DNA of 64,000 nt from an uncultured Clostridia bacterium (lineage in GTDB: Bacteria > Bacillota > Clostridia > Christensenellales > Aristaeellaceae). Within the stretch, counting starts at the first letter, position 1; each line of letters begins with the position of its first letter. Both the position numbers and the translations under genes were made by a program. Below, piece after piece: positions 23,786 through 56,282 of the stretch. Location of the stretch: the NCBI GenBank assembly GCA_946536315.1, contig CAMNEH010000001.1, positions 592 through 64,591 on the forward strand. Direction: 5' to 3'. The notes below the pieces were generated by a model that saw nothing but the letters and a program-made list of their open reading frames with translations, was not told where the DNA came from and searched no databases.

Positions 23786-23803
23786 CCGGAAGGGAGGAAG
23801 AAG

Positions 23804-36712: not shown

Positions 36713-37627
36713 GTGAACAAACGGATGATCAAAGTGACGGTGTTTACCCCGACGTACAACCGCGCGGAGCATATCCCCAACCTGTACCGCTCGCTGTGCG
36801 CGCAGACGGTCAAGGATTTCGAGTGGCTCGTGATCGATCAGGGGACGGACGGGACAGAAGCGCTGGTCCGCGGGTTTCAGGCGGAGGCGCCGTTCCCTGT
36901 CGTCTATCACCGTCTGGAGGGAGAGCGCGGCATCAGCCGCGCCATCAATCGGATGACGGACCTGGCGCATGGCGCGCTGGTATTCCGGGCCGACGATGAC
37001 GATCAGCTGACGCCCGACGCGGTCGAAGCGGTGCTCGGGATGGCCTCCACGCTGACGGACCGCACGGACTATGCGGGCGTCAGCGGCGTCAAGATGTACC
37101 CGGATGGCCGCGCGATCGGCGGCGAGTGGCAGCTGGCGTCCGACTGGATCGACTGCACGAACCTGGAGCGGGAAAAGTACGGCCTGATGGGCGACAAGGC
37201 GGAAGCGTATTTCCTGGACGTGCTGCGGGAATTCGGGCCGATGCCGACGGTGCCGGGAGAGTACTATACCTGGGAAGGAATTCTCTGGGACCGTATCGCC
37301 CACGCAGGCAGGAAGATCCGCTGGTTCAACCAAAAAATATACATCGCGGAATATCTCCCGGGCGGCGCGACGGACACGAGCGCCGCGGCCAAGCTGAGCA
37401 ACCTGCGGACCTACACGCTGTTTGTGTCTGAGAGGATGGTCTATCGCGAGCTGCCGCTTCTCACCCGCTTCAAGCTCTGCTGCCGGTATTTTGAACTGGT
37501 GCGGCAGAAGGGCTGGCGCTACGCGGACGTAAAGGACGCCTTTTCACGGTGCCGGCTGATGGCATGGACGGCGTACCTGGCGAGCGCGGTGACCCGGCAC
37601 ATCGGGCAGGAACCGGTGAAGCCATGA
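36713..37627 (+). CDS. glycosyltransferase family 2
   Basis: VFTPTYNRAEHIPNLYRSLCAQT, VIDQGTDGT, FRADDDD. Confidence 0.8.
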   Translation: MNKRMIKVTVFTPTYNRAEHIPNLYRSLCAQTVKDFEWLVIDQGTDGTEALVRGFQAEAPFPVVYHRLEGERGISRAINRMTDLAHGALVFRADDDDQLTPDAVEAVLGMASTLTDRTDYAGVSGVKMYPDGRAIGGEWQLASDWIDCTNLEREKYGLMGDKAEAYFLDVLREFGPMPTVPGEYYTWEGILWDRIAHAGRKIRWFNQKIYIAEYLPGGATDTSAAAKLSNLRTYTLFVSERMVYRELPLLTRFKLCCRYFELVRQKGWRYADVKDAFSRCRLMAWTAYLASAVTRHIGQEPVKP

Positions 37628-38748
37628 ACGCGGACACGCCATTTTTCGGGCTTCTCCGCTGCGCGCTGTGGGGCGGGGAGGCGCCGGCGGCGGACGAAAC
37701 GGTGTTCGAACTGTTCAAACGACAGACGCTGATTGCGCTTCCCGCGCCGGTGCTTTCGCGCGTCCCCATGCCGGAAGCCCTGCGCGGCGGGTGGGAAAAA
37801 GCCGTCTATGCCCAGGTTTCCCGCAATGTGTATTACAGCCGGGCGGAAGCGGCGCTGCCCGTGACCGTGCCGTACGCGGTGCTGAAGGGCTCATCCGCCG
37901 CGAAATATTATCGTTTTCCCGAGTACCGCGCGGTGGGCGATATTGATATCATGCCCCGCCAGGACGATTTCGAAGCGGCCTGCGAGGCGCTGCTGGCGGC
38001 GGGCTATACCGAAAACACCGTGCATTTCCCCAATGAGCCGCTGCGCCATCGCCGCTTTCTCCGGCACCGGGTCGAGGTGGAGGTCCATGCGCGCTTCGCG
38101 CAGCTGAAGGATGAACAAAAATCGCGTCAGCTGGACCGTCTGATCATCGACAGCGCCGGTCCTAACCACAGCCTGCCGGATCCGGTGAATGGCCTCGTGC
38201 TGCTGGAGCATATCCGACAGCACCTGCAGGAAGGCGTGGGACTCCGGCAGATCATCGACTGGATGATGTTCGCGCATCGCTGCCTGGACGATCCGCAGTG
38301 GCCGGCGTTCCGGCCCAACGCGGAGACGTTTGGCCTGGTCCGGCTTGCGCAGGTCTGCACGCAGATGTGCGTCCTGTATCTGGGTCTGCCGGCGCGCGCG
38401 TGGTGCGCCGGGGTGGACGCATCCCTGTGTGATCGTCTGATGGACGATATTCTGACCGGCGGGAATTTCGGACACGAATACGGGCGCGACAGCCGGGTCA
38501 GCCAGAAGGTGCTTGCTGCCGCCGGGTCGCCGCGGGCCGTGTTTCACCTGCTGCAGAGCCGGGGACTGGATAACTGGCCGGCTTCCCGGACGACACCGCT
38601 GCTTCGTCCCTTCGCCTGGCTGTACCAGCTGGGACGTTACCTGAAAAAAGGCGCGCTGCGCCCGGCCGCGCTTCGCCGTCTGAGAAACGAAGCCGCGACC
38701 GTCAGGCGGCGCGGCGCGCTGCTGAAAGCGCTTGGAGCAGATCAGTAA
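37624..38748 (+). CDS. uncharacterised nucleotidyltransferase-like protein (NTP_transf_5-like)
   Basis: The ATG overlaps the upstream stop (ATGA). LKGSSAAKYYRFPEYRAVGDIDIM resembles the minimal nucleotidyltransferase GS...D.D signature. Confidence 0.55.
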   Translation: MNADTPFFGLLRCALWGGEAPAADETVFELFKRQTLIALPAPVLSRVPMPEALRGGWEKAVYAQVSRNVYYSRAEAALPVTVPYAVLKGSSAAKYYRFPEYRAVGDIDIMPRQDDFEAACEALLAAGYTENTVHFPNEPLRHRRFLRHRVEVEVHARFAQLKDEQKSRQLDRLIIDSAGPNHSLPDPVNGLVLLEHIRQHLQEGVGLRQIIDWMMFAHRCLDDPQWPAFRPNAETFGLVRLAQVCTQMCVLYLGLPARAWCAGVDASLCDRLMDDILTGGNFGHEYGRDSRVSQKVLAAAGSPRAVFHLLQSRGLDNWPASRTTPLLRPFAWLYQLGRYLKKGALRPAALRRLRNEAATVRRRGALLKALGADQ

Positions 38749-42998: not shown

Positions 42999-44486
42999 AT
43001 GAAAAAAAGCAAGAAGCAAAAAGCTGCTCCTCCTGCTGCTCCGTCTCCGGTGACGGCGCTTCCGGCCGCTGCGCCGGACCTGCGGGCTGACCGCCCCGCT
43101 GGTCAGCTGATATCGTGGCGGAAGGTCGCGCTGTTCATCGCCATATGCTGGCTTCCCTTTTTTGTCTACACCATGCCGGGCAATATCGCCTGGGATACGG
43201 GCGCAGGGATCGGCCAGTTTATGAAGATCGGAGCTGAGAATCCGAACAACCCGTATTTCCAGAATTATCTGATGGGCGCGTTCTGCTACTTCGGGCGGTT
43301 GGCCGGCAATACCAATCTCATGGTGCTGCTGTACTGTCTGCTGCAGACTGTCGCAGAAATTCTGGTGCTCTCCCGCATCATCGCGCGCGTGGGGGAGCAC
43401 AGCCGCGTCGCGGGCTACATCCTGCTGGCGTTTTACTGCTTCGTGCCGACCGTGCCGATCTACGCGATGACGATGGGCAAGGATTCCAACCTCGCGGTCG
43501 CGGTGCTGTTGTACCTGGCCTGCGCGCTGCAGGCGATGCGCGATGACGCGTACTGGAAAGAGGAACGCCATGAAACGCTGTTTGCATCCAGCATCCTGCT
43601 GATGACGCTGTTCAGGAATCATGCGGGCTGGGTACCGGCCGTGGCGTTTGTCCTCTACACGATCTTTGCGGTCCGGCAAAAGCGGCTGGTGCTTCACTCC
43701 CTGGCAGTGCTGGGCGCGGTGGCCATGCTGTCCGTGGGGCTTCCTGCGCTGCTGGATATCCCGAAAGTGGAGATCAAGGAAAGCCTGACGGTGCCGATGC
43801 AGACGATGGCGTACTTCATCAAGACGCGGCCGGAAGACCTGACCGATGAGGAACGTGGGATCATCACGCAGGTCATCGACATCGACCGGATGATGCGGCA
43901 TTATGATCCGAACATCGTCGATTCCATGAAGAAGCGCATGGTCCTGGACGAAAAGACGACCGGGCCGTTTCTCCGCCTGTGGCTGCGCAAATGTTTCCAG
44001 CATCCCCTGACTATGCTGCAGGGCATGTATCAGAGCACGTATATCTATTTGATCCCGACGGAGCGAAGCGCCAACAAGGGACAGGCGACGGTGGGCTATG
44101 ACATCAGCGAGGAGGTGAAGGAAAAAATGAACATGTACAATGACAACCCGAACGTCGTCCGGATTAAAAACTATCTGAAGCGCTGGATCAACGCGCCCGT
44201 CCTGGGCCTGCTGGTGAGGATCGGGCTGTTTTCCTGGCTGCTTGCGCTGCTGGTGATTCTGATCTTCGTGTTCCGCCGGCCGCGGTACCTGTTATGCGCC
44301 GCGCCGCTTCTGACGATCTTCATTGGCTGTCTGCTTTCGCCCCTTAACGGCTACTACCGCTACGCCCTGTCCATGATCGTCGGCGTGCCCGTCGTGCTGG
44401 CTGACCTGCTCAGCACGGTGACGGCCAACCTGCGCTTCCCGCCGATCAGGCGGCGCGTCAGGAACACGAGCCCCGCCGGGAGGTGA
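42999..44486 (+). CDS. polytopic membrane protein, possible GT-C-like glycosyltransferase (function unassigned)
   Basis: 495 aa. Lys/Pro/Ala-rich N-terminus followed by 10 or more hydrophobic helices. Loop motifs include NIAWDTGAG and YAMTMGKDSN. Confidence 0.45.
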   Translation: MKKSKKQKAAPPAAPSPVTALPAAAPDLRADRPAGQLISWRKVALFIAICWLPFFVYTMPGNIAWDTGAGIGQFMKIGAENPNNPYFQNYLMGAFCYFGRLAGNTNLMVLLYCLLQTVAEILVLSRIIARVGEHSRVAGYILLAFYCFVPTVPIYAMTMGKDSNLAVAVLLYLACALQAMRDDAYWKEERHETLFASSILLMTLFRNHAGWVPAVAFVLYTIFAVRQKRLVLHSLAVLGAVAMLSVGLPALLDIPKVEIKESLTVPMQTMAYFIKTRPEDLTDEERGIITQVIDIDRMMRHYDPNIVDSMKKRMVLDEKTTGPFLRLWLRKCFQHPLTMLQGMYQSTYIYLIPTERSANKGQATVGYDISEEVKEKMNMYNDNPNVVRIKNYLKRWINAPVLGLLVRIGLFSWLLALLVILIFVFRRPRYLLCAAPLLTIFIGCLLSPLNGYYRYALSMIVGVPVVLADLLSTVTANLRFPPIRRRVRNTSPAGR

Positions 44487-45037
44487 ATGCGCTGCGTATC
44501 TGGAAGGATATCCTGGCACAGGGACAGTACCTGTTCCGGGCTGGATTGGTCACGGCACTGATTCTTCTGGCCTCCGTGCTTTATCCGGACGGGCGGAGCG
44601 GCGCGGGGCAGCGCCTCAGGCGCCTGTTGAAGCGGCCGTGGCGGATCGCGTTCGCGTTTTATTGCGTGTTCATTCTGACCAGCACGGTCCTGGGCCGTTC
44701 GTTTGTCAATCCGACCGAGCACGTGCTCACCCATTTCGGATTCACACATCAGGGCGCGTTCAACGACCAGCTGGTGGAAAACATCCTGTTCTTCATTCCA
44801 CTGACGTTTTTTTACCTGAACGCGTTCCCGGTCCGGCACCCGTTCAGAAACGCGCTGCAGCTGTCCGTGGGTATGACGCTGCTGGTGGAAATGTGCCAGC
44901 TGCTGGGCAGGCTGGGGGAATTCCAGCTGGCGGACATGGCGCAGAATATCGTTGGCGGGCTGCTCGGCTGGGCGCTGTGGCGCCTCACCCGGATCCTGTT
45001 TCCGTCAGGTCGTTCCTCACGCGAAAACGGTTTGTAA
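44483..45037 (+). CDS. VanZ-like family membrane protein
   Basis: The GTG overlaps the upstream stop (GTGA). ENILFFIPLTFF and EMCQLL...LADMAQNIVGGLLGW resemble VanZ-family helices. Confidence 0.65.
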   Translation: MNALRIWKDILAQGQYLFRAGLVTALILLASVLYPDGRSGAGQRLRRLLKRPWRIAFAFYCVFILTSTVLGRSFVNPTEHVLTHFGFTHQGAFNDQLVENILFFIPLTFFYLNAFPVRHPFRNALQLSVGMTLLVEMCQLLGRLGEFQLADMAQNIVGGLLGWALWRLTRILFPSGRSSRENGL

Positions 45038-45064: not shown

Positions 45065-45093
45065 TTGACAGACCGGAGGATTCTTAATATAAT
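45065..45093 (+). promoter_or_regulatory. consensus SigA promoter of the RiPP operon
   Basis: TTGACA (45065-45070), exactly 17 nt, TATAAT (45088-45093). GGAGGG RBS at 45107-45112 lies before the TTG start at 45123. Confidence 0.8.
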
Positions 45094-45122: not shown

Positions 45123-45599
45123 TTGCGCGATTACGCAACCGTGCGCACGATGCCTGCAGCGCAGTACTTTGCGCTGGTCAGGCAGTCGCTTCAGGATACG
45201 GGGCAGGCCTATGTCCGCGTGACGGGCGCCAGCATGCGCCCGCTGCTCAGGCACAGGCGGGACGGGGTCATCCTCGGACGGCCGGAAACGCTCCGCCGGG
45301 GCGATATCGTGCTGTTTGACCGCGGTGACGGCCGCTACGCGCTGCACCGCGTGATCCGTCTGCGGCCGACCGGGTTTGATATGGCCGGCGATCATCAGCG
45401 CAATGTCGAAACCGACCTGCCGTATGCGCAGGTCGTCGGTGTCGTGACCGCCGTTGATCGGGGCGGACGCCGTATCTCCCGTTCAAACTTTTTTTTTCAA
45501 TTATTGGCGTTTTTACTGCCACGTCTCGCGGAGCTGCGTATCAATGTACGGAAGGCGCTGACGGCAGGCCGGAGCCTTCTGAAGCGCGGACGGGCATGA
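45123..45599 (+). CDS. S26-family peptidase of the Ser-His (SipW/Sec11-like) type
   Basis: 158 aa. GASMRP carries the nucleophile Ser. GDIVLFDRGDGRYALHRVIRL matches the GDI..F...HR(V/I) box of ER/archaeal-type signal peptidases. No clear N-terminal TM anchor. Confidence 0.65.
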   Translation: MRDYATVRTMPAAQYFALVRQSLQDTGQAYVRVTGASMRPLLRHRRDGVILGRPETLRRGDIVLFDRGDGRYALHRVIRLRPTGFDMAGDHQRNVETDLPYAQVVGVVTAVDRGGRRISRSNFFFQLLAFLLPRLAELRINVRKALTAGRSLLKRGRA

Positions 45600-45606: not shown

Positions 45607-45879
45607 GTGCGCATGCGAATTCGACCGGGATATGTTCTGCGTCAGGTCATGGACATGTATGTTGTCGTGGGCGTGGGGAGCGAAACATACCGCCCAAACC
45701 AGATCATGAGTCTCAATGAGACCGGCGCGGCGCTCTGGCGTAAGCTGGAGCAGGGGGCTGACACGCAGACGCTCATCCGCAGCCTGACAGAGGAATTTGA
45801 AGTGGACCCTGTCACAGCCGGGAACGATCTGAACGCCTTCCTCACCCAGCTGCGCGAGCACGCGCTGATCGACGAATGA
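45607..45879 (+). CDS. PqqD-like RiPP recognition element protein
   Basis: 90 aa. LNETGAALWRKLEQGADTQTLIRSLTEEFEVDPVTAGNDLNAFLTQL is typical PqqD-family sequence. The stop overlaps the rSAM start (ATGA). Confidence 0.8.
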   Translation: MRMRIRPGYVLRQVMDMYVVVGVGSETYRPNQIMSLNETGAALWRKLEQGADTQTLIRSLTEEFEVDPVTAGNDLNAFLTQLREHALIDE

Positions 45880-47024
45880 GGGAAAAGGTCTGGCAGCCGG
45901 ACCGGATTGCCGACCAGCTTCAGATGCGGGCGATCCGCCTGCGCCGTCCGCTGAGCTGTACGCTGGAGCTGACCTGCCACTGCAACTTTCACTGCGTGAT
46001 GTGCTACATCCGCATGAATGAAGCGCAGGCGGCGGCCCATGGCCGGATGAGGACGCCGGAGGAGTGGCTGGACATGGCCCGGCAGCTCAGGGAAGCGGGC
46101 GTACTGTACCTGCACCTGACCGGCGGGGAGTGCACCCTGTACCCGGGGTTTGAGCGCCTGTACGCGAGGCTTTCGGAGATGGGCTTCAGACTGAGCGTGA
46201 TGAGCAACGCGGGAGCCTATACGGACAGCGTGCGCCGGGTGTTCACCCAGTATCCGCCGCTCAGCGTGGCGGTCACGCTGTATGGCGGCTGCGCGGCGAC
46301 CTACGGCCGGGTGACCGGCGACGCCGGAGGCTTTGACAGGGTCGTGGACAATATCCGCTTCCTGCAGTCCGCCGGGATCCCGGTGACCGTCAACTTTACC
46401 ATGATCCGGCAGAACGCGCAGGATTATCCAAAGGTGGCTGAACTGTGCCGTACGCTGGGCATCGCGTTCACGCTGAACACGGACATCACGCCCCATCGGT
46501 ATGACGCCTCGTATTCCGATGCGATGCGCTGCTCTCTGACCCCGGCGGAACGGGCGTGTGTCGCATGCCACTCCCCTTCTGAGGTGGACATTGCCCTGAA
46601 CGCGGCCAAGACGCTCGAACAGGAGCTGTCGCATTTCACGCCTCCGCAAGGGCCCGCGGGCGTCCTGCCCGAGCAGGAGGCCTGCATCGCCGGCTCCGCA
46701 GGCTGCGCGATCGCCTGGAATGGCGACATGCAGACCTGCGTCTCCCTGAACGCATGGCAGAGCGTGAAGCCGTTTGAAATCGGCTTTGAGGCCGCCTGGG
46801 CGCAGCTCAAAGCCGCGCAGGACAGGACGTTTGCGCGCCCGAGCGTATGCGCTCAGTGCGAAATGCGGACAGACTGCGATCACAACTGCCCCGGCAGGCG
46901 GTTCGAAGGCACGGGGAATATCCACACCCCCGACCCGCGGGTATGTCAGTACACGTACCTGCTGAGGCTGTACCGCGCCAGGCGCGGCACGGTGTCCACG
47001 CCAGGCACGCCCGGCTGCGTCTGA
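45876..47024 (+). CDS. radical SAM enzyme with C-terminal SPASM domain (peptide maturase)
   Basis: CNFHCVMC (Cx3Cx2C) lies near the N-terminus and is followed by a GGE motif (LTGGECTL). The C-terminal SPASM pattern is CIAGSAGCAIAWNGDMQTC ... CAQCEMRTDCDHNC ... VC. Confidence 0.9.
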   Translation: MREKVWQPDRIADQLQMRAIRLRRPLSCTLELTCHCNFHCVMCYIRMNEAQAAAHGRMRTPEEWLDMARQLREAGVLYLHLTGGECTLYPGFERLYARLSEMGFRLSVMSNAGAYTDSVRRVFTQYPPLSVAVTLYGGCAATYGRVTGDAGGFDRVVDNIRFLQSAGIPVTVNFTMIRQNAQDYPKVAELCRTLGIAFTLNTDITPHRYDASYSDAMRCSLTPAERACVACHSPSEVDIALNAAKTLEQELSHFTPPQGPAGVLPEQEACIAGSAGCAIAWNGDMQTCVSLNAWQSVKPFEIGFEAAWAQLKAAQDRTFARPSVCAQCEMRTDCDHNCPGRRFEGTGNIHTPDPRVCQYTYLLRLYRARRGTVSTPGTPGCV

Positions 47025-47079
47025 GCGTCCCGCCGCTGCCCTGATCCGGATGAAGACCGTACCACAGGAGGAATCATCC

Positions 47080-47262
47080 ATGAGAAAAAAGTATGTCGCG
47101 CCGAAACTGTTTGTCGATGTATACGCTGCGGACACCATGATCGCTTCGGACGACCCCACCCCGGTGTTTGAAGCCAAGGAAGGCAATCCGAACAATCAGA
47201 ACTGCTATGGCTATAAGGACATTCCCGGGGCGTTCGTAGACGGCAACATCTGCATCATGTGA
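47080..47262 (+). CDS. candidate RiPP precursor peptide A (60 aa, no GG site)
   Basis: AGGAGG (47066-47071) lies 8 nt before the ATG. Sequence: MRKKYVAPKLFVDVYAADTMIASDDPTPVFEAKEGNPNNQNCYGYKDIPGAFVDGNICIM. It has two Cys (C42, C58) and sits directly after the rSAM gene. Confidence 0.55.
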   Translation: MRKKYVAPKLFVDVYAADTMIASDDPTPVFEAKEGNPNNQNCYGYKDIPGAFVDGNICIM

Positions 47263-47266: not shown

Positions 47267-48103
47267 ATGACCTGTACGTTTGGCCGCTATGCGCTCGACA
47301 TCGGAGGTTTTCCGGAAGCGCTTCACTCCATCTCCGCGTCATGGAAGGACTACGTGGGTCAGACGGGAGTATCGCCGCCTGACGCTCGGCTCACGCTGCT
47401 GACCGCGCCGACAGCCCCGGATGAACGGACGGACGGATGGTATGCGTCAGCGGGAGAAGCGGAAGAGCTGGAAGTGACCTGCGTACGGGCCGGCCAGCGC
47501 CTGTTCACGCTGCGTTATGGCGGCGAGAGGGGCAAAGTGACGCTGATCGCCGACGAAGCGCGGCCAGGGAGCGTTCGCCTGGGCCTGCGGTACGGCATGC
47601 TGCTGGCCCTGCGAAAGACCTGTCTGGGCCTGCACGGTGTCACCCTGCTGTGCGGGAATGAGGTGGTGATCCTCTCCGCGCCCAGTGGGACCGGCAAAAC
47701 GACGCTGGCTTCGCTCCTGGAGCGGTATGAGGACGCCATTGTGATCAACGGCGATTTCGCGCTGCTTACGCCGGCGGAGGATGGTCTCTGGTTTGAACCC
47801 ACGCCCTTCTGCGGTACGTCACACAGGTGTCTGAACGTTCGTACGCGGGTGCACCGGATCGTTTTCCTGGGCCAGTCGCCTGTGAACGTCTGGCGGACCC
47901 TGGACGCGCGGGAAGCCGCCCTCTGTCTGCTGAGCAACGCATTCGTCCCCGAGTGGGACTTGTCCGCACAGCAGACGCTGCAGGAGCACGCGCTGCGCTG
48001 CATATCCCTTGCGCGCATGGACCGGTTTGACTTCGCGCCGACCCGTGAGGCGGCCGGGATCGTGATTCATCAGCAACTGCATGAAGAGCAATCTTCTCAG
48101 TAA
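47267..48103 (+). CDS. HprK C-terminal-domain-like P-loop protein (putative peptide kinase)
   Basis: 278 aa. LHGVTLLCGNEVVILSAPSGTGKTTLASLL resembles the HPr kinase/phosphorylase catalytic P-loop region. Confidence 0.65.
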   Translation: MTCTFGRYALDIGGFPEALHSISASWKDYVGQTGVSPPDARLTLLTAPTAPDERTDGWYASAGEAEELEVTCVRAGQRLFTLRYGGERGKVTLIADEARPGSVRLGLRYGMLLALRKTCLGLHGVTLLCGNEVVILSAPSGTGKTTLASLLERYEDAIVINGDFALLTPAEDGLWFEPTPFCGTSHRCLNVRTRVHRIVFLGQSPVNVWRTLDAREAALCLLSNAFVPEWDLSAQQTLQEHALRCISLARMDRFDFAPTREAAGIVIHQQLHEEQSSQ

Positions 48104-48123
48104 TAAAACATGGAGGTGTCAAC

Positions 48124-48360
48124 ATGGAGTTCAAACAACCGACCAGCCAGGCTGAAATGGATGCCCTGCGCAAGAGCCTGCGCCAGAAGCTCGACGATGC
48201 TGACCTCGAAAACGTGGTCGGCGGCAATGACGACGTCAAGGGCAAGGGGAATCCCACCCCCTGGACCTGCCTGTGGTGCGGCCAGACGTTCATGCTGAAA
48301 AAGCTGCAGGACGCCGCCAAGCACTGCGCGCATGACTGCCCGAAGAATCCGTACAAGTAA
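48124..48360 (+). CDS. double-glycine-leader precursor peptide B (78 aa; 44-aa Cys4 core)
   Basis: GGAGG lies 7 nt upstream. The leader ends LDDADLENVVGG, with hydrophobics at -4, -7 and -12. Core: NDDVKGKGNPTPWTCLWCGQTFMLKKLQDAAKHCAHDCPKNPYK. Confidence 0.75.
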   Translation: MEFKQPTSQAEMDALRKSLRQKLDDADLENVVGGNDDVKGKGNPTPWTCLWCGQTFMLKKLQDAAKHCAHDCPKNPYK

Positions 48361-48375
48361 TCGACCGGAGGTCTT

Positions 48376-48399
48376 GCCTGGCAGTTTGTTCTGCCAGGC
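48376..48399 (+). terminator. hairpin (attenuator-like) after precursor B
   Basis: GCCTGGCAG-TTTGTT-CTGCCAGGC is a perfect 9-bp stem followed by a weak T-tract (tgcctttc). Confidence 0.45.
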
Positions 48400-48429
48400 T
48401 GCCTTTCATGTGAAGTTGCTCTCAGACCG

Positions 48430-50139
48430 ATGTCAATGATAAACTATCTGGCGAAAATCAAGTCCATCCTCAAAGGCCGCACGCTGCCGGATATCGTCCG
48501 CTGGACCAGGCCGGTCCATGCGATGCTGCTGTGGCTGAGCGTTCTCAACGTGGTGAGCTCGCTGCTCTCGCTGGGCGTGACGCTGGTGACACGGGAGCTG
48601 ATCGACGGCGCAGTCAGCGCGAACGCGAATGCGCTCACACGCTACGGTGTGATGCTGGCAGCGCTGATCATCGTCATGCGCGTGCTCGATGTATTGTATT
48701 CCGGCCTGCGCAGCCGCGCCTCTGTCCGGCTGCAGCGGGAAATGCAGCGCATGATCACACAGGCGGTGCTTTCCAGGGAATATGCTTCGCTGAAATCCTA
48801 CCACAGCGGCGACCTGATCAACCGAATCTTTTCGGATGCGGAGGTGGTCAAGAACGGCGTCATCAACACGCTGGCGGGCATCATCAATACCCTGGTCAGC
48901 TTTATCGGCGCCGCGATCATCCTGATTTCCATGGACTGGCGCTTTGTGCCCGTGCTGATCCTGGGCGGACTGATCGGCGTCGTGATCACGCTGCTGTTCC
49001 GAAATCCCATGAAGCGCCGTCACACGCGCATGCAGGAGGCGGAGAGCGCGCTGCGCGCAGGCACGCAGGAAACGCTGGAAAGCCTGCGCGTCGTCAAGGC
49101 CAGCCTCTCAGAAGCGCGCGTAATGCGTCAGCTGGAGGACAGCCGTGAGCGCCTGAGCCTGGAACAGCTGCGCAACGCCCGCCTGAGCATCGCCATGAAC
49201 AACGGAATGGGTGTCCTGTTTGACGTGTCCTGGCTGGTGTGCAATCTATGGGGCTGCGTCAAGATTTACCGCGGTGAGTTCACCTACGGCGGCCTGGCCG
49301 CCATGATCCAGCTGATCGGCCGGATTCAGGCGCCGATCGCGTCAGCAGTCCAGATGGCCAGCCAGATCTACGGTGTGCTGGCGTCGGCAGAGCGTCTGCA
49401 GGAGGTCATTGGCCTGCCTGAGGAGCCGAACACGGGCAAAATCAGTTCGTTTGACCGGATCGCGCTCGAGAATGTTTCGTTCCAGTATGAGGATGGTACG
49501 GATGAGGTTCTGCTCAACGTCACCGCAAGCATCCGGCGCGGAGATTTTATCGCCCTGACCGGGCGGTCCGGCGGTGGAAAAACCAGCCTGTTCCACCTGC
49601 TGCTGGGCCTTTACCGCCCGACGCACGGCGCGGTGGTCTTTGAATCCGGCGCCGAGCGGATACTCGCCGGTCGGGGCACCCGGGCACTGTTCGCCTATGT
49701 GCCGCAGGGCAACACGCTGTTTTCCGGTACGCTTCGCGAAAACCTGACGCGTTTTACCGACAGCGCGTCGGATACGGAGGTCATTGCCGCGGCGAAGGCT
49801 GCCTGCATCGACGACCTCGTTGCGGAAATAGGGCTGGACGCCGTTCTGGGAGAACATGGTGTCGGTCTGTCAGAGGGCCAGGCGCAGCGGGTGGCGGTGG
49901 CGCGCGCCTTGCTCAGCCGGGCGCCGATCCTGCTGCTGGACGAAGCGACCTCCGCGCTGGATGAGGCGACGGAAGCGAACATGCTGACCAATATCGGCCG
50001 CATGCGCGATAAAACGGTCCTGATTGTGACGCATCGCCGCGCGGCACTTGACATTTGCGACGTTCGGTGGCATATTGAGGAGGGACGGATGTCCGTCACG
50101 CGCCTTGCGCGGCATTCTGACGATGGGGGAAGCATGTGA
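48430..50139 (+). CDS. ABC exporter, fused permease/ATPase (no peptidase domain)
   Basis: 569 aa. Six-TM domain, Walker A GRSGGGKTS, signature LSEGQAQRV, Walker B ILLLDEATS. Confidence 0.85.
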   Translation: MSMINYLAKIKSILKGRTLPDIVRWTRPVHAMLLWLSVLNVVSSLLSLGVTLVTRELIDGAVSANANALTRYGVMLAALIIVMRVLDVLYSGLRSRASVRLQREMQRMITQAVLSREYASLKSYHSGDLINRIFSDAEVVKNGVINTLAGIINTLVSFIGAAIILISMDWRFVPVLILGGLIGVVITLLFRNPMKRRHTRMQEAESALRAGTQETLESLRVVKASLSEARVMRQLEDSRERLSLEQLRNARLSIAMNNGMGVLFDVSWLVCNLWGCVKIYRGEFTYGGLAAMIQLIGRIQAPIASAVQMASQIYGVLASAERLQEVIGLPEEPNTGKISSFDRIALENVSFQYEDGTDEVLLNVTASIRRGDFIALTGRSGGGKTSLFHLLLGLYRPTHGAVVFESGAERILAGRGTRALFAYVPQGNTLFSGTLRENLTRFTDSASDTEVIAAAKAACIDDLVAEIGLDAVLGEHGVGLSEGQAQRVAVARALLSRAPILLLDEATSALDEATEANMLTNIGRMRDKTVLIVTHRRAALDICDVRWHIEEGRMSVTRLARHSDDGGSM

Positions 50140-50846
50140 GGACGTTTATCATCGGCGATATTCACGGCTGTGATAAGGCGCTGAACCGGCTGCTGATCCG
50201 GCTCAGACCGCATGAGGACCGTGATCAGCTGATTCTGCTGGGCGATTTGTTTGACCGCGGCCCGGACGCCTGGGAAGTGTTCCGGACCGTCAGACAGCTG
50301 GCGGACGCGTACGGCGAGCGCTTTGTCCTGATCCTGGGCAATCATGAGGATTTCCTGATGAGGGAGAAGCTCTCGCTGATGGAGCGCATGACGTGGAATC
50401 GCGTCGGCCGCCTGACGACGGTGCGCTCGTTCAAAGCGCACGGCGATGATCCGGCGTCTGCGATTCCCTGGCTGAAAGCGCACGCGCAGCTGACCTACCG
50501 CGACGAGCGCGTACAGTGCGCTCACGCGGCCGTCCGCGTCGAGCCTGTCGAGGCGAATGATCGTCAGACGCTGGTGCACGACCATCATACGCTCGTCGAA
50601 AACAGCTACGCGGGGCGGTTGACCGTCACCGGACATATGGCGCTGGAGGCGCCGACCTGGTTCGCCGGTGATCGCGAGACGGCGGAACAGATTCCGTACG
50701 GCGAATGGCGGCCCCTGCCGCAGCGGGGCGTGCTGTGCATAGATACCGGTTGCGGCAAGGGCGGGCGATTGACCGGGATGCAGCTGGAAGAGGACCCGGA
50801 CAGCGGCGCGCTGCGTTACCGGCTGGAGCGGGCGAAAGAAGAATAA
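50136..50846 (+). CDS. PPP-family metallophosphoesterase (Ser/Thr phosphatase / ApaH-like)
   Basis: The GTG overlaps the ABC stop (GTGA). Motifs: GDIHGC, GDLFDRGP, GNHE. Confidence 0.85.
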   Translation: MRTFIIGDIHGCDKALNRLLIRLRPHEDRDQLILLGDLFDRGPDAWEVFRTVRQLADAYGERFVLILGNHEDFLMREKLSLMERMTWNRVGRLTTVRSFKAHGDDPASAIPWLKAHAQLTYRDERVQCAHAAVRVEPVEANDRQTLVHDHHTLVENSYAGRLTVTGHMALEAPTWFAGDRETAEQIPYGEWRPLPQRGVLCIDTGCGKGGRLTGMQLEEDPDSGALRYRLERAKEE

Positions 50847-50864: not shown

Positions 50865-51026
50865 CCTGCCATCCTGCCCCGGGGCGCGTATATAGTATTG
50901 GAATGAGTCCATCGGACATTCCACCGAGCGGAACAAAACGCCGCAGGACGGCTGTTCCGTGCCGATGGCGCTCTGCTCCGGAACAATGTTTGCAAAGTCC
51001 AACATCTTTTAAAGGAGGATTTGACC

Positions 51027-51251
51027 ATGGCACGCGTACAGCTCAACGACAATCAGCTGGAACAGGTTTCCGGCGGCGCTTTCAACTTCTACAAGAAGGA
51101 TGACCAGAACCAGTGCTACGTGGACGGTATGGGCACCTTCAACTGCAGCGCGGATGCGTCCAACTGGGTGCTCCAGCGCATGGCGACCACCGGCGCGCCG
51201 GTGTCCACCGTGATCGCGGAAGCGGTGGAAAAGGGACTGTTCTGGAAGTAA
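51027..51251 (+). CDS. double-glycine-leader bacteriocin precursor C (74 aa; 57-aa core)
   Basis: AGGAGG (51013-51018) lies 8 nt before the ATG. Leader: MARVQLNDNQLEQVSGG. Core: AFNFYKKDDQNQCYVDGMGTFNCSADASNWVLQRMATTGAPVSTVIAEAVEKGLFWK (C13-x9-C23). Confidence 0.8.
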   Translation: MARVQLNDNQLEQVSGGAFNFYKKDDQNQCYVDGMGTFNCSADASNWVLQRMATTGAPVSTVIAEAVEKGLFWK

Positions 51252-51330
51252 TCCGACGCTGATGCCCGCCTGACGCGGACACACCGTTCAGGCCGCATCG
51301 TATTCATGCCACAGTTAAAGACGCGTCTCA

Positions 51331-51382
51331 CCTCTCAGCCTTTCGGGGTTTCCCGCGAAGGCTGGGAGGTTGTACTGTTTTC
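51331..51382 (+). terminator. long imperfect hairpin plus T-rich tail after precursor C
   Basis: CCTCTCAGCCTTTCGGGG...CCCGCGAAGGCTGGGAGG pairs over about 17 bp with bulges, followed by TTGTACTGTTTTC. Confidence 0.6.
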
Positions 51383-51405
51383 GGCCAATCAAAAAGGAGC
51401 TTTCT

Positions 51406-51894
51406 ATGCAGGATCAGCAGAAACCCAAACTGTTTCGAGAAAAAAGCCTCGAGGCGATTGAGTCGCCTGAGGCGCTGAATGATTACCTTCGCGTCACTTC
51501 CCCCGGGGTCTGGCTGGTGATGGCCGCTGTGATCACGCTGCTGGTCGGGCTGCTTCTGTGGAGCATCCTGGGACGCATCGACACCACGATGCGCGTGGCG
51601 GTCGAGGCAGACAATGAGCGCACGGTTTGCTATGTGCCATACGACGCGCTGCAAAAGATGAAGGATGAAGGCAAGCTGACCATTGACGGGAAGGAGTATT
51701 CCCTGCAGCTCGGCGGTGAAGCCAGCGTGGTCATCGTCTCGGAGGAAACAAATCCCTATCTTCGCGTGGCGGGCGGCCTGCAGCTGGGGGATGTGACCGT
51801 GCAGGTGCCGGTCGCGGCGTCCCTGGCCGAGGGCGTATACTCAGGTACGATCGTGACGGACCGCCTTCAGCCGATCACGCTGCTGATACAGTGA
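51406..51894 (+). CDS. short HlyD-like secretion adaptor (NHLM-system type N-terminus)
   Basis: RBS AAGGAG is present. LFREKSLEAIESPEALNDYLRVTSPGVWLVMAAVITLLVGLLLW matches the N-terminus plus TM of bacteriocin-system HlyD adaptors, but the protein is only 162 aa. Confidence 0.6.
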   Translation: MQDQQKPKLFREKSLEAIESPEALNDYLRVTSPGVWLVMAAVITLLVGLLLWSILGRIDTTMRVAVEADNERTVCYVPYDALQKMKDEGKLTIDGKEYSLQLGGEASVVIVSEETNPYLRVAGGLQLGDVTVQVPVAASLAEGVYSGTIVTDRLQPITLLIQ

Positions 51895-54086
51895 GGGAGG
51901 GGAAACGCGTGGCTCGAAAACCAAATATTCCCCGTCCGGTTGAAAAAGGGTTTGTCCGGGTGCCGGTGGTCATGCAGCTGGAGACGCTGGAGTGCGGCGC
52001 CGCTTCGCTGACAATGGTCATGCATTACTACCGCAAGTGGATCCCCCTGGAACAGGCGCGCGTGGACTGCGGCGTGTCCATGAACGGCGCGAACGCGAAA
52101 AACATCCTCGCCGCCGCGCGAAGCTACGGCATGAAGGCAGACGCCTGGGGCCTGGAGGCGGAAGACCTGCCGGACCAGGGGCCGTTTCCGTGCATCATCC
52201 ACTGGGGATTCAATCATTTTGTGGTCCTCTGCGGCTTTCAGGGCAAGAAGGCGGTCATCAACGATCCGGCGCGGGGGAACGTGGTGGTCGACTGGGAAGA
52301 GTTTGACAGGGAGTTCACCGGCGTCTGCATCACGCTTGAGCCGGGGCCGGATTTCGTGCCCTCCGGAAAACCGAAGACCGTCATGGATTACGCGCGCGAG
52401 CGCCTGAAAGGGTCCGGCGCGGCGGTGACGTTCGTCGTTCTGACGACGACCATTTCGTCACTGATCGGCATCATTCAGCCGGCCTTTGCGCGGACCTTCC
52501 TGGACCGGCTGCTCACCGGACGGAATCCGGAGTGGCTCCGCCCGTTCATGCTGCTCTTTTCACTGCTGATTCTGGTCAGCATTGTCACGTCCTGGATTTC
52601 CGCGGTCTATTCCCTGCGTATTCAGGGCAAAATGGCATCCTATGGCAGCGCGTCGTACCTGTGGAAGGTGCTCAGGCTGCCGATGCAATTTTTCAGCCAG
52701 CGCATGTCGGCGGACATTGCGGACCGGCAGGCGACCAACGCGTCCATCGCCGGCACGATGGTCGAAACCTTCGCGCCGCTGGCGCTTCAGGCGCTGATGA
52801 TGGTGTTTTACCTGGTCGTCATGGTCAGCTACAGCCCGCTTCTGTCGGCGGTCGGCATCGGCGCGATCGCGCTGAACCTGCTGGTCTCTGCCATGGTGAC
52901 CAGGCGCCGCGTCAATATCACGCGCGTCCAGCAGCGTGACGCCGCCAAGCTCTCGTCAACCACCATGTCCGGCATCAGCATGATCGAGACCATCAAGTCC
53001 AGCGGCGCGGAAAACGGCTTTTTTGAGCGCTGGGCGGGATATCAGGCGAGCGTCAACACGCAGTCGGTCCGGTTCACCCGGCTGAATCTGTTTTTAGGTT
53101 CCCTGCCGCAGGCCATCACGACCATCGCCAATCTGGCCGTGCTCGGTCTGGGTGTGCTGCTCGTCCTGCGCGGCGAGTTCACTGTCGGTATGGTGATGGC
53201 CTTCCAGACCTTCCTTTCTTCGTTCATGTCCCCGGCGACGTCGCTGATCACCGCGGGCCAGTCGATGCAGGAAATGATCACGCAGATGGAGCGTGTGGAC
53301 GACGTGATGAGCTATCAGGAGGATCCCACGTTCGCCCCGCGCCCCAAGACCGGCGAATACCAGAAGCTGTCCGGCGCGGTCGAGCTGAAGAACGTGACGT
53401 TCGGCTATTCCCGGCTGGATAAGCCGCTCATCACTGACTTTTCCATGACGCTCAAGCCGGGACAGAAGGTTGCCTTTGTCGGCAGGACGGGCTGCGGCAA
53501 GTCCACCCTGGCCAAGCTGATCTCCGGATTGTACCAGCCCTGGAGCGGTACCGTCACATTTGACGGCGTCCCCCTGCAGGAAATAGACCGGAACGTGTTT
53601 ACAGGCTCCGTTTCCGTCATCGATCAGGACATTACGCTGTTCGAGGACACGATTTCCGAAAACATCCGGATGTGGGACGGTTCCATTGAAGACTTCGAAG
53701 TAACGCTGGCGGCGCGCGACGCGGGCATCTATGACGATATCGTGACCCGCGACGGCGGGTTTACGCACCGGCTGCTGGACGGCGGACGCGACCTGTCCGG
53801 CGGGCAGCGGCAGCGCCTGGAAATCGCGCGCGCCCTTGCGCAGGATCCGACCATCTGCATCATGGACGAGGCGACCTCGGCGCTCGACGCCAGGACGGAG
53901 CATGAGGTCATCCGCTCCATCAACGACCGCGGCATTACCTGTGTGATCATCGCGCACCGCCTGTCCACGATCCGCGACTGCGACGAGATCATCGTGCTGG
54001 ACAAGGGCAAAATCGTCGAACGCGGGACGCATGAGGAACTGTACGCCAAGGGCGGGCTGTATGCCAGCCTGGTGAGCAACGAGTAA
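51891..54086 (+). CDS. bacteriocin ABC exporter with N-terminal C39 peptidase domain
   Basis: The GTG overlaps the upstream stop. QLETLECGAASLTMVMHYY carries the C39 catalytic Cys region. Also has a six-TM domain, Walker A GRTGCGKST, signature LSGGQRQRL and ICIMDEATS. Confidence 0.9.
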   Translation: MREGKRVARKPNIPRPVEKGFVRVPVVMQLETLECGAASLTMVMHYYRKWIPLEQARVDCGVSMNGANAKNILAAARSYGMKADAWGLEAEDLPDQGPFPCIIHWGFNHFVVLCGFQGKKAVINDPARGNVVVDWEEFDREFTGVCITLEPGPDFVPSGKPKTVMDYARERLKGSGAAVTFVVLTTTISSLIGIIQPAFARTFLDRLLTGRNPEWLRPFMLLFSLLILVSIVTSWISAVYSLRIQGKMASYGSASYLWKVLRLPMQFFSQRMSADIADRQATNASIAGTMVETFAPLALQALMMVFYLVVMVSYSPLLSAVGIGAIALNLLVSAMVTRRRVNITRVQQRDAAKLSSTTMSGISMIETIKSSGAENGFFERWAGYQASVNTQSVRFTRLNLFLGSLPQAITTIANLAVLGLGVLLVLRGEFTVGMVMAFQTFLSSFMSPATSLITAGQSMQEMITQMERVDDVMSYQEDPTFAPRPKTGEYQKLSGAVELKNVTFGYSRLDKPLITDFSMTLKPGQKVAFVGRTGCGKSTLAKLISGLYQPWSGTVTFDGVPLQEIDRNVFTGSVSVIDQDITLFEDTISENIRMWDGSIEDFEVTLAARDAGIYDDIVTRDGGFTHRLLDGGRDLSGGQRQRLEIARALAQDPTICIMDEATSALDARTEHEVIRSINDRGITCVIIAHRLSTIRDCDEIIVLDKGKIVERGTHEELYAKGGLYASLVSNE

Positions 54087-54101
54087 AGGGGGGAGAAGTT
54101 C

Positions 54102-56282
54102 TTGGGGTGGTTTGACGAACAAATTGAATACAGAAAGAAGTATGAACGGGAGCTTCTCAGCGATTCCCTGGAGAATATCGCCCGGTCTGTCACCGGCCGC
54201 CGCATCGTCAGCGCGTTCAGGGATGACGCGGACGTCAGCGACGCAGTCTCCGCGCTGCTCAAGCATCTCGGCGTGAAGGAGAAGGAAGTCCCCGCCAACA
54301 TCAGCGGGCTGCAGGATAAGCTGGATTATCTGCTCTCCTCCACGGGCATCCTGTACCGTGAGGTCAAGCTGACCAAAGGCTGGCACGCGGACGCGATGGG
54401 CGCCATGATCGCGACGCTCAATGACGGCGCTGTCATCGCGGTGCTGCCCTCCGACCTGGGCGGCTATGAGTATACCGATCCCAAAACCGGCCAGCGCGTC
54501 CGTGTGAATGCCAAGCAGGAGGACAATATCAGCCGTGAAGCGCTGTGCTTCTACCGCCCGCTGCCTTTGCGCGCGCTGACGATCCGGGATCTGCTCAAAT
54601 ACATGTACAGCTGCCTGACGGTCCGCGACCTGGTCAGCTTTGCGCTGGCCGCCCTGGCGATCACGCTGGTCGGCATGCTGATGCCCAAGCTGAACCAGAT
54701 CCTGATCGGGCCGGTGATCTCCTCGGGCAGCGAACGGCTGCTGCTGGCGGTCATGCTGTTCATGCTGTTCGCTTCGATCGGCAGCATTCTGATCGCCATC
54801 ATCCGCGCCCTGCTGCTCAACCGCATCCGCTACAAAATGAATGTGGATGTGAGCGCGGCGACCATGATGCGCATCCTTTCGCTGCCGACGTCGTTCTTCA
54901 AGCTGTATTCCGCCGGCGAGCTGAACCAGTACATCAGCTACATGGACAGCCTCTGCACGACCATTGTGAATTCCGTGTTTTCCACGGCGGTGACCGGCGT
55001 GTTCTCACTGGTGTATCTCGGCCAGATCTCCGCGTTCGCGCCGAGCCTGGTATGGCCCAGCCTGCTGGTCACGCTGCTGACGCTGGGGGTCAGTCTGCTC
55101 TCCGCTTCGGTGCAGATGCGCATCGATTCGGAAAAAATGGTATACAGCGCGAAGGAGCGCGGCTTGGTTTACTCGCTGATCACGGGCATACAGAAAATCC
55201 GCCTGAGCGGCGCAGAAAACCGCGCCTTCAGCAAGTGGTCCCAGACGTATGTCCGCAGCTCTGAGCTGACGTACAATCCGCCGGCCATCATCCGTCTGTC
55301 AGCGGTCATCACCACGGCCATCTCGATGATCGGGACGGCGGTGGTCTATTATGTGTCTGTCCGAAACGGCGTGAGCGTGGCGGATTATTATGCGTTCAAC
55401 TCCGCGTACGCGTATATCTCCTCCGCATTCTCGTCGCTGGCCGCCATGGCGCTGTCCGCGGCGTCCATCCGACCGATCATTAAAATCATCGGGCCGTTCC
55501 TGGCCGCCGTTCCTGAAACCGCGGATGCCCGGGAAACGGTGACGCGTCTGTCCGGCAGCATCGAGCTGTCGCACGTGACCTTCGGGTACGATCCGGAGAG
55601 CAAGCCGCTGTTCGAGGACTTCTGCCTCACCATCCCGGCGCGTCAGTACGTGGCCATCGTCGGCCGGAGCGGCTGCGGCAAGTCCACGCTGGTGCGCCTG
55701 CTGCTGGGCTTTGAAAAACCCTCGCGCGGCGTCATCAACTATGACCGCAAGGACCTGCAGCGCCTGGACCTGCGCTCGCTGCGCCGCCAGATCGGCACGG
55801 TGATGCAGGATGGCCGGCTCTTCTCCGGCAGCATCTTTGACAATATCGTCATCTCCGCGCCGACGCTAAAGCTGGAGGACGCATGGAAGGCGGCGGAAAT
55901 CGCCGGGATCGCGGACGACATCCGCGACATGCCCATGGGCATGAACACCATCCTCCAGGAAGGCGGCGGCACGATCTCCGGCGGTCAGCGCCAGCGGCTG
56001 ATGATCGCCCGCGCGATCGCGCCTAAGCCGAAAATCCTGATTTTCGACGAGGCGACCTCAGCGCTGGACAACATCACGCAGAAGAAGGTCTCAGAGGCGC
56101 TGGACACCATGAAGTGCACCCGCATCATCATTGCGCACCGCCTCTCCACGATCAAAAACTGCGACCGGATCCTGGTGATCGACGGCGGAAAGATCGCGGA
56201 GGATGGCACCTACGAACAGCTGATGGCCAGGAACGGCATCTTTGCTGAGCTGGTCGAGCGTCAGCAGCTGGGTAACAAGTAA
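54102..56282 (+). CDS. partner ABC exporter with degenerate (Cys-less) C39-like N-domain
   Basis: 726 aa. The N-terminal ~150 aa lack the QxxxxCG motif. Walker A GRSGCGKST, signature ISGGQRQRL, ILIFDEATS. Confidence 0.85.
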   Translation: MGWFDEQIEYRKKYERELLSDSLENIARSVTGRRIVSAFRDDADVSDAVSALLKHLGVKEKEVPANISGLQDKLDYLLSSTGILYREVKLTKGWHADAMGAMIATLNDGAVIAVLPSDLGGYEYTDPKTGQRVRVNAKQEDNISREALCFYRPLPLRALTIRDLLKYMYSCLTVRDLVSFALAALAITLVGMLMPKLNQILIGPVISSGSERLLLAVMLFMLFASIGSILIAIIRALLLNRIRYKMNVDVSAATMMRILSLPTSFFKLYSAGELNQYISYMDSLCTTIVNSVFSTAVTGVFSLVYLGQISAFAPSLVWPSLLVTLLTLGVSLLSASVQMRIDSEKMVYSAKERGLVYSLITGIQKIRLSGAENRAFSKWSQTYVRSSELTYNPPAIIRLSAVITTAISMIGTAVVYYVSVRNGVSVADYYAFNSAYAYISSAFSSLAAMALSAASIRPIIKIIGPFLAAVPETADARETVTRLSGSIELSHVTFGYDPESKPLFEDFCLTIPARQYVAIVGRSGCGKSTLVRLLLGFEKPSRGVINYDRKDLQRLDLRSLRRQIGTVMQDGRLFSGSIFDNIVISAPTLKLEDAWKAAEIAGIADDIRDMPMGMNTILQEGGGTISGGQRQRLMIARAIAPKPKILIFDEATSALDNITQKKVSEALDTMKCTRIIIAHRLSTIKNCDRILVIDGGKIAEDGTYEQLMARNGIFAELVERQQLGNK

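Follow-up and report, generated by a model that had tools for sequence, protein, structure and literature searches.

Gene order and products of the operon

The window analysed here is a 64,000-nucleotide stretch of contig CAMNEH010000001.1 from an uncultured Clostridia bacterium of the Aristaeellaceae. Between 45.1 and 50.8 kb it carries, in this order, genes for a protease, a PqqD protein, a radical S-adenosylmethionine (rSAM)/SPASM maturase, precursor peptide A, a P-loop protein, peptide B, an ABC exporter and a metallophosphatase. These genes, like the promoter-like site at 45065-45093, the hairpin and the flanking genes of the window described below, lie on the plus strand. We read the stretch as one operon for a peptide that is ribosomally synthesized and then modified post-translationally (a RiPP), of the linear polyphosphorylated peptide (LPP) type, extended with an rSAM/SPASM maturase and including a metallophosphatase that would trim or remove phosphate; our confidence in this reading as a whole is about evenly balanced. 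The coordinates of the open reading frames (ORFs) confirm the gene order of the original prediction, in which a kinase-like P-loop protein and a phosphatase bracket peptide B and the exporter.

The first gene (45123-45599) encodes a signal-peptidase-I-like protease of the S24/S26, archaeal/SipW type. Its matches to Pfam Peptidase_S24 (1.2e-4, 22.2 bits, cut-off 23.3) and to TIGR02228 sigpep_I_arch, the best NCBIfam match (2.6e-5, 24.2 bits, cut-off 51.85), are both below the cut-off, and the product is probably the leader peptidase. A sigma-70-type promoter-like site (TTGACA-17-TATAAT, 45065-45093), which matches the consensus at 12 of 12 positions and is a consensus match only, lies just 5' of this gene and is the probable start of the operon; three such sites were detected, against 1.8 expected from shuffled sequences. 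The protease gene is followed by a discrete PqqD-type RiPP recognition element (RRE) at 45607-45879 (Pfam PqqD, 2.6e-17). Its top NCBIfam matches are NF033530 and NF033536, the lasso-peptide PqqD chaperones, and B1 proteins are nearest. The rSAM/SPASM peptide maturase (45876-47024; Pfam Radical_SAM, 1.8e-20) has ScmE, SkfB and PqqE as its top NCBIfam matches, every one below the cut-off. Its C-terminus has a CxxCx5Cx3C motif, read in the translation as CAQCEMRTDCDHNC.

The exporter (48430-50139) is an MsbA-like ABC protein without a C39 peptidase domain. It matches Pfam ABC_membrane and ABC_tran, and the MsbA-type models TIGR02203 and TIGR02204 at about 1e-65. A terminator-like hairpin with a 9-pair stem and a poor T tail, again a consensus match only, lies between peptide B and the exporter gene (48380-48403) and may be a leaky terminator.

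The P-loop protein and the precursor peptides

The P-loop protein (47267-48103, 278 residues) carries LHGVTLLCGNEVVILSAPSGTGKTTLA at residues 122-148. Its AlphaFold model, with a predicted local distance difference test (pLDDT) score of 92.8, was matched by Foldseek in the PDB to ATP-dependent phosphoenolpyruvate carboxykinase (PEPCK) and to HprK/P with probability 1.0 and E-values of 5e-6 to 1e-4; the HprK/P structures are 1knx, 1ko7, 1kkl, 1jb1 and 3tqf (2e-5 to 1e-4). With these matches the modelled protein is rightly called HprK-like at the level of the fold. The family bridge runs through relatives. Orthologues give weak or faint precomputed matches to PF27840 (ScmC), and relatives at 25-34% identity match TIGR04249 (ScmC) best, followed by TIGR04352 and TIGR04355 (HprK-related kinases A and B). 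The distant relatives reach 1e-4 to 8e-10 with TIGR04249, at no more than 38.6 bits against a cut-off of 125 bits. The HprK-like assignment in the original prediction holds by fold and by this bridge, whereas sequence tools return only Walker-A matches, as did a 46-sequence profile of the family searched against the PDB.

The family has at least 258 homologues, all from uncultured Clostridia where the organism is named, and the closest is 51% identical among the matches listed. In an alignment of 46 homologues, the C-terminal 160 residues are highly conserved and the N-terminal 115 poorly. The invariant positions are H123-G124, S140-G141-x-G143-K144-T145-T146, N161-G162-D163 and an EPTPFCG loop. 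We take the H123 and D163-type invariants to be the equivalents of the catalytic His and Asp of HprK. Judged from the model, the conserved C-terminal domain is a PEPCK/HprK-type nucleotide-binding domain, and substrate specificity probably lies in the variable N-terminal domain (about residues 1-119).

Peptide A (47080-47262, 60 residues) consists of the leader MRKKYVAPKLFVDVYAADTMIAS and a core with NNQNC. Its gene was called with an AGGAGG at 47065-47070, and the ATG at 47080, 9 nt after this element, is most likely the start. The longer ORF given before for this peptide, from 47050 with 70 residues, is replaced by this shorter one. Across the nine orthologues of peptide A, the alignment shows an invariant Y..AP.L..D....DTMIAS followed by NNQNC.G, with a mean column identity of 60% compared to 70% for peptide B. 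The LPP precursor consensus is YxxPxVLxHQxIxFETxxS, and LPP and lasso leaders share the motif [Y/W]xxPx[L/V] (Popov et al., Nat Commun 2026, PMC13381572). Peptide A has in common with this consensus the Y..P.L, Thr and Ser elements, the Y..P.[L/V] motif being followed by Thr and then, a few residues on, by Ser. HQ and FE are absent from it, and Thr and Ser are spaced by 4 in peptide A and by 3 in the LPP consensus. Peptide A is thus predicted to have an RRE-binding motif of the LPP type, and Thr and Ser as a pair where leader and core meet. Distant ScmC-like loci also encode small peptides whose leaders are of this type.

A comparison of loci L002 and L011 points to peptide A as the partner of the P-loop protein. 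The two loci are nearly identical in the rSAM protein (99%), exporter (99%), phosphatase (96%) and protease (92%), whereas the P-loop proteins are only 63% identical. Their DNA agrees at 97% as far as the middle of peptide A, cannot be aligned over L002:7903-8357 (counterpart L011:9904-10348), and is then 95.6% identical. The unalignable segment coincides exactly with two stretches, the 3' half of the core of peptide A and residues 1-119 of the P-loop protein, so the core and the N-terminal domain appear to have been exchanged as a single module. The N-terminal domains of the two proteins share 27 of 115 residues, and the C-terminal domains are about 94% identical. Such an exchange is expected if the N-terminal domain recognises the core, and it argues for peptide A as the kinase substrate. 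Taking fold, family, LPP precedent and this mosaic together, we consider it fairly probable that the P-loop kinase acts on peptide A.

The Ser of DTMIAS is replaced in some distant rSAM-linked relatives by Asp, Glu, Gly, Ala or Arg while the ScmC-like gene is retained. Examples are …NIADVCWG, …NVAEKCWG, …RVADQCWG, …RLARC and …RMAAC, in the precursors L014:9342-9665, L015:9239-9604, L019:9449-9733, L017:9357-9545 and L021:9371-9604. Either a different acceptor is used in these peptides, or the acidic residue mimics a phosphate.

Peptide B (48124-48360, 78 residues) has a double-glycine (GG) leader (…VVGG|NDD…) and a conserved CxxC…KH…CP.NP.K segment, and has no Pfam or NCBIfam match. The invariant segment, CxxC…D..KH…CP.NP.K in the alignment, resembles a C2HC zinc knuckle. 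The exporter encoded in the operon lacks the C39 peptidase domain that would be needed to cut the GG leader. We rejected peptide B as the main kinase substrate because the N-terminal domain co-varies with the peptide A core, and peptide B may still be a further substrate. At L002:9187-9744, a membrane-anchored thioredoxin-like protein (YYFYKDYCPWC) is encoded between peptide B and the exporter. Equivalent genes occur in L003, L004, L006, L008, L010 and L011 and are absent from the window (48360-48430) and from L095. Every locus with this gene has a peptide A core with four Cys, whereas the cores of the window and L095 have two. This restriction suggests that the four-Cys products carry an extracytoplasmic disulfide.

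The metallophosphatase

The last gene of the operon (50136-50846) encodes a PPP-fold metallophosphatase of 236 residues (Pfam Metallophos, 2.4e-17). Its GTG start (50136-50138) overlaps the TGA stop of the exporter gene (50137-50139), and the ribosome-binding-like stretch GGGGGAAG precedes it at 50125-50132. The GTGA overlap and the coupling to the exporter that had been proposed from it are therefore borne out by the coordinates. The PPP signature proposed before is also intact: the translation contains GDIHGC, GDLFDRGP and GNHE, and D8, H10, D37, N69, H70, H130 and H167 are invariant among 40 homologues, H130 and H167 being the later metallophosphoesterase histidines. The AlphaFold model (pLDDT 93.9) has the PPP fold. 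The nearest Foldseek matches are an uncharacterised metallophosphoesterase, a trypanosome ApaH-like protein, lambda phosphatase, ApaH, SapH and PnkP, with PP2A, calcineurin and PP1 next; the matched structures include 1g5b, 9ojd, 3qfn and 4j6o. The protein has no signal peptide or membrane segment, and its catalytic motif begins at residue 7, so any dephosphorylation would take place in the cytoplasm.

The original prediction had named an ApaH-like activity on nucleotides as an outcome that would speak against it. The protein scores 87.7 bits with NF001204 (cut-off 176) and 60.4 bits with TIGR00668 (cut-off 222.85), and the ApaH-like stretch covers only residues 1-134 (1e-13 with ApaH of the PDB over residues 1-133). 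We rejected the identification as ApaH itself on these sub-cut-off scores, the restriction to the N-terminal half and the length of 236 residues compared to 280 in ApaH. However, ApaH is still the best sequence match. The family assignment is sound, and the substrate class is not readable from sequence or fold.

Conservation of the cassette and the phosphatase

Nine orthologous cassettes were compared (window, L095/96, L002, L011, L003, L004/5, L006/7, L008/9 and L010). In all nine, protease, PqqD, rSAM, peptide A, P-loop protein and peptide B follow one another in this order. The protease gene is the first in each of them, and its pairing with the PqqD gene is kept in all and in many distant loci. 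Eight of the nine cassettes have an orthologous exporter (at least 680 bits), and the L008/L009 contigs stop before one would show. The metallophosphatase gene lies directly 3' of the exporter in six of the nine. The 4-nt stop/start overlap is found in five of these six (window, L002, L003, L004/5 and L011) and also in L075, with GTG or TTG as the overlapping start where checked. At L003 the exporter-phosphatase pair has moved upstream as a unit with its overlap retained. The phosphatase gene lies 5 kb upstream at L008, a second cassette follows the exporter instead at L010, and the L006/7 locus ends 91 nt past the exporter gene.

In the reverse direction, five locus groups were found through phosphatase relatives 57-65% identical to that of the window. 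A metagenome scan with the phosphatase gave only one close relative (L075), and reverse co-occurrence rests on few loci. One group (L095/96) has the full cassette. In another (L069/70, Aristaeella hokkaidonensis), the phosphatase adjoins a different ScmC-like/PqqD/rSAM cassette. The remaining loci are L071/72, where an S24-like gene and a response regulator are all that adjoins the phosphatase; L073/74, where it stands with a 170-residue protein, a C39-ABC and an ABC gene and no cassette; and L097-99, where it is 1.2 kb from an orthologous exporter near SpoIIE-type sensor phosphatases. Distant ScmC-like loci, found with the kinase profile, mostly have PqqD and/or S24-like genes beside the P-loop gene, and some have rSAM, exporter or NTP_transf_5 genes. 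The link of the phosphatase to the operon is real but facultative, with a closer tie to the exporter than to the kinase. The co-conservation of kinase and phosphatase genes that had been proposed as a check is seen in most orthologous cassettes, but it is not obligate, as phosphatase relatives also occur in loci without a cassette.

Relation to known systems

The LPP clusters of Bacillota are defined by five core genes (PMC13381572). Four of these have counterparts in the window, in this order: a TIGR02228-like protease, a lasso-type PqqD RRE, a putative kinase that is HprK/ScmC-like by fold and through its relatives, and the MsbA-like exporter. LppS-type peptidases are defined by TIGR02228, and the 'HprK kinase' entries in Supplementary Data 2 of that study are TIGR04249 (67), TIGR04352 (65), TIGR04355 (11) and TIGR00679 (8), which makes ScmC-type proteins the majority class in LPP clusters (PMC13381572). 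LppK transfers 1-4 phosphates onto core Ser3, and LppS cuts after Thr-1 and processes the unphosphorylated precursor poorly (PMC13381572). LPP clusters often sit within capsular polysaccharide loci, with VanZ in 31 of 126 SpI neighbourhoods (Supplementary Data 2, PMC13381572), and the window operon likewise has a VanZ neighbour and a polysaccharide-locus setting. Metallophos or Metallophos_2 genes, which are not discussed in the text of that study, are present in 27 of 126 (21%) Bacilli LPP-type neighbourhoods (PMC13381572), a minority feature that the window shares. The co-location of kinase and Metallophos genes is already tabulated for Bacilli.

The window operon differs from LPP clusters in its rSAM/SPASM maturase and its second, GG-leader Cys/His peptide, in having the NTP_transf_5 gene outside the operon, in the 4-nt overlap that joins phosphatase and exporter genes, and in a kinase too divergent for any curated HprK/ScmC threshold. 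The hosts also differ: they are uncultured Clostridia and not Bacilli, and where a source is given it is a rumen or gut metagenome. The part of the domain table of PMC13381572 available to us holds no 'Radical_SAM' entry. The rSAM/SPASM gene argues that the product of the window operon is not simply linear.

Paeninodin-type lasso systems have HprK-like kinases (PadeK/ThcoK), whose acceptor is the C-terminal Ser of the lasso precursor. The window resembles them in having an HprK/PEPCK-fold P-loop protein beside a discrete PqqD RRE and an ABC exporter. It differs in lacking a lasso cyclase and a B2 cysteine protease, and in a hypervariable N-terminal domain that co-varies with the core. These kinases have been reported to polyphosphorylate a single Ser (work cited in PMC13381572).

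The trio of a PqqD-type protein, an rSAM/SPASM protein with ScmE as top match and a ScmC-like P-loop protein also recalls SynChlorMet (SCM; TIGR04249-TIGR04251). The definition of SCM includes, to our knowledge, no protease, exporter or phosphatase. The window rSAM protein scores 73.8 bits with ScmE and 60.9 bits with ScmF, where the equivalog cut-offs are 400, and the ScmC relatives likewise stay far below theirs; the window system falls outside SCM by these scores. We take the window operon to be a member of an LPP-like superfamily that recruited an rSAM/SPASM enzyme. The metallophosphatase shares GDxHG, GDxxDRG, GNHE, the later His and IDTG(C)xxGG with bacterial PPPs (ApaH, PrpA/PrpB, PrpE, lambda phosphatase and the phosphatase domain of PnkP). 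Unlike these, it reaches no curated equivalog cut-off, and its ApaH alignment is mainly within residues 1-133. We know of no member of the ApaH, PrpA/PrpB, PrpE, lambda or PnkP families that acts on a RiPP intermediate. In the literature on HprK, RiPPs and radical SAM enzymes and on metallophosphoesterases and RiPPs, we found no paper on an rSAM-containing LPP-like cluster or on a phosphatase role.

Proposed maturation pathway and its alternatives

From the observed folds, motifs, gene order, co-conservation and co-variation of N-terminal domain and core, we infer the following catalytic steps and substrates. The PqqD protein would bind the YxAPxL leader of peptide A, and the N-terminal domain of the ScmC/HprK-like protein would dock on the core. 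The P-loop domain would move at least one phosphate from ATP to a hydroxyl at the leader-core junction, for which the invariant Ser of DTMIAS is the best acceptor candidate. The rSAM/SPASM enzyme may cross-link the Cys-containing core. The signal-peptidase-like protease would cut the leader, probably favouring the phosphorylated form as LppS does, and the MsbA-like pump would export the product. The metallophosphatase, co-translated with the pump, would be a facultative accessory that trims or removes (poly)phosphate in the cytoplasm after use. This last step is the weakest, and we consider action of the phosphatase on the phosphopeptide possible, though less likely than not. The points in its favour are the gene overlap and the position after the exporter in most cassettes, the recurrence beside a different ScmC-like cassette, and the Metallophos genes counted in Bacilli.

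If the phosphatase does act on the phosphopeptide, we favour, by analogy with LPPs, a phosphate that licenses leader cleavage and is later removed or trimmed. A cleavage of phosphoanhydrides like that by ApaH would suit the trimming of polyphospho-Ser. In a more specific form, the phosphate would be a traceless handle: a core-matched kinase with an exchangeable N-terminal domain marks the junction with a mono- or polyphosphate, the mark licenses cleavage by the signal-peptidase-like protease and possibly rSAM cross-linking, and the phosphatase erases or trims it before export. We consider this form quite unlikely. Reversible peptide phosphorylation, as suggested in the original prediction, is plausible; kinase fold and family, PPP fold and co-conservation agree with it, but the facultative co-conservation and a substrate class open to ApaH-type activity do not confirm it.

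Several results weigh against the pathway. Pfam, NCBIfam and PDB phmmer searches gave no HprK call for the P-loop protein (Hpr_kinase_C and TIGR00679 included) and returned Walker-A matches only. The window protein has no significant match to TIGR04249, TIGR04352, TIGR04355 or TIGR00679, and the HprK/ScmC scores of its relatives are far under the curated cut-offs. In distant rSAM-linked precursors the residue after 'IA' is not always Ser; Asp, Glu, Gly or Thr can stand there. The closest relatives of the phosphatase include nucleotide hydrolases (ApaH, SapH), an RNA-end phosphatase (PnkP) and protein phosphatases. Three of the five reverse groups (phosphatases 57-63% identical) have no cassette within 10 kb, and none of 56 distant ScmC-like loci has the phosphatase. 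The phosphatase family is also larger than the kinase family (at least 836 and at least 258 matches). A promoter-like site at 50048-50076 (10 of 12 positions, extended -10 TG), inside the 3' end of the exporter gene and 60 nt before the phosphatase gene, could drive the latter independently. Finally, kinase and phosphatase activities are both predicted from sequences and models.

Much of this evidence would also fit an explanation in which the kinase stands and the phosphatase is a lineage-conserved cytoplasmic PPP/ApaH-like enzyme outside peptide maturation, located at a peptide-export locus with a turnover of cassettes and co-transcribed with the exporter for regulatory or purely syntenic reasons. 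It could be a signalling phosphatase for Ser, Thr, Tyr or His, or a hydrolase of dinucleoside polyphosphates or RNA ends. The orthologues that stand alone or with other modules (L071/72, L073/74 and L097-99), the sigma/anti-sigma, SpoIIE or STAS genes that flank several loci, ApaH as the best sequence model, the larger family and the possible own promoter all agree with this explanation, and so does the near identity of the L002 and L011 phosphatases despite their differing peptide A cores. Against it, the 4-nt coupling to the exporter is kept across loci whose P-loop proteins are just 44-59% identical, the pair has been relocated as a unit at one locus, and the gene recurs beside a different ScmC-like cassette and in the Bacilli LPP neighbourhoods (PMC13381572). 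The ApaH models are also well under the cut-off and cover the N-terminal half only. We regard this explanation as the main alternative, though less likely than the proposed pathway.

The original prediction had suggested self-protection, with a phosphorylated peptide that is inactive in the producer until the phosphatase removes the phosphate at export. A kinase and a phosphatase in one operon, the latter translationally coupled to the exporter, are what this would need, and streptomycin offers a precedent of phosphorylated inactive intermediates that are dephosphorylated on export. However, the cytoplasmic phosphatase, with no signal peptide or anchor, makes it a poor fit, since the active form would be regenerated inside the cell. 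The candidate acceptor is at the leader-core junction and not in the variable core that would bear the activity, and some cassette loci and all of the distant relatives lack the phosphatase. In LPPs, phosphorylation promotes leader cleavage instead, and no immunity role is known there (PMC13381572). By analogy, phosphate gating of leader cleavage fits better than self-protection, which we consider improbable.

The weakest alternative, and a very improbable one, is that the P-loop protein uses ATP to serve the rSAM enzyme or the protease as a scaffold or chaperone, or phosphorylates Ser/Thr for elimination to a dehydro-amino acid in the way of lanthipeptide kinases. It would suit the sub-threshold scores of the family with HprK-type models, the definition of ScmC as a conserved hypothetical protein that partners PqqD and rSAM/SPASM proteins, the Asp, Glu or Gly in place of Ser in distant precursors that keep the P-loop gene and the Cys residues of the peptide A core. 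It is opposed by His-Gly, Walker A and Asn-Gly-Asp motifs that do not vary among 46 sequences, as a catalytic site for phosphotransfer would require, by the ScmC-type majority among LPP kinases together with the shown kinase activity of LppK (PMC13381572), and by an operon with no lyase-like gene, which also makes a lanthipeptide-like dehydration unlikely.

LPPs were first described in 2026, and their final products and biological role are not yet established. In the Clostridia variant, LPP logic (RRE-guided cleavage by a signal-peptidase-like protease, HprK/ScmC kinase and MsbA-like export) is connected with radical SAM/SPASM chemistry and with the ScmC family, which has long been uncharacterised. 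The kinase N-terminal domain that is swapped together with the peptide A core gives a clear handle on substrate recognition. Whether a dedicated phosphatase closes a phosphorylation cycle or trims polyphosphate in peptide maturation becomes directly testable. The phosphate handle, if true, would give ribosomal peptide biosynthesis its first dedicated kinase/phosphatase cycle. Should the phosphatase prove unrelated, the remainder is a member of a new RiPP family that is ordinary but had not been described before.

Flanking genes and further observations

A gene for a VanZ-like membrane protein (44483-45037, PF04892) lies directly 5' of the operon and is likewise upstream in L095. It belongs to a polysaccharide/teichoic-acid-type locus of about 20 kb (25-45 kb) with LytR_cpsA_psr, LicD, Wzy_C, GT2s, NTP_transf_5, ALGX and VanZ. 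The NTP_transf_5 nucleotidyltransferase in this locus (37549-38748, LppN-type domain; Pfam PF14907, 4.2e-25) is encoded about 6.4-7 kb upstream of the operon (6.4 kb from the promoter-like site), and no homologue was found in the flanks of the other orthologous cassettes. A gene for a protein of about 1950 residues and a LytR_cpsA_psr gene, at 17924-24874 in the window, are immediately 5' of the cassette in L002, L003, L004 and L011. In the window the polysaccharide locus separates this pair from the cassette, which suggests that the locus was inserted or expanded in this genome.

A second export module follows the phosphatase gene at 51021-56282. It consists of a GG-leader peptide (51021-51251), a small HlyD-N-terminal-like protein (51370-51894), a C39-peptidase ABC transporter (51891-54086) and a second ABC transporter (54102-56282). 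The module is also 3' of the phosphatase at L095:8527-13808 and at L073/L074:10001-15833, the latter without the GG peptide, behind a phosphatase orthologue and with no rSAM cassette nearby. By gene order, the phosphatase gene appears to mark the junction between two peptide-export modules.

At L006:1887-5487 and L010:1654-5611, a paralogous cassette lies directly 5' of the main one. It encodes an rSAM/SPASM protein of 457-459 residues (best match TIGR04463), a PqqD protein, an S24-like protease, a ScmC-like protein of 241 residues, two Cys-rich peptides with MKxFxxPxxxV leaders and one GG-leader peptide. At L006:10010-13723 and L007:5859-9572, AAA_15/AAA_21 and TIR_2 genes, which look like anti-phage defence genes, form an insertion that separates the thioredoxin-like gene from the exporter gene.

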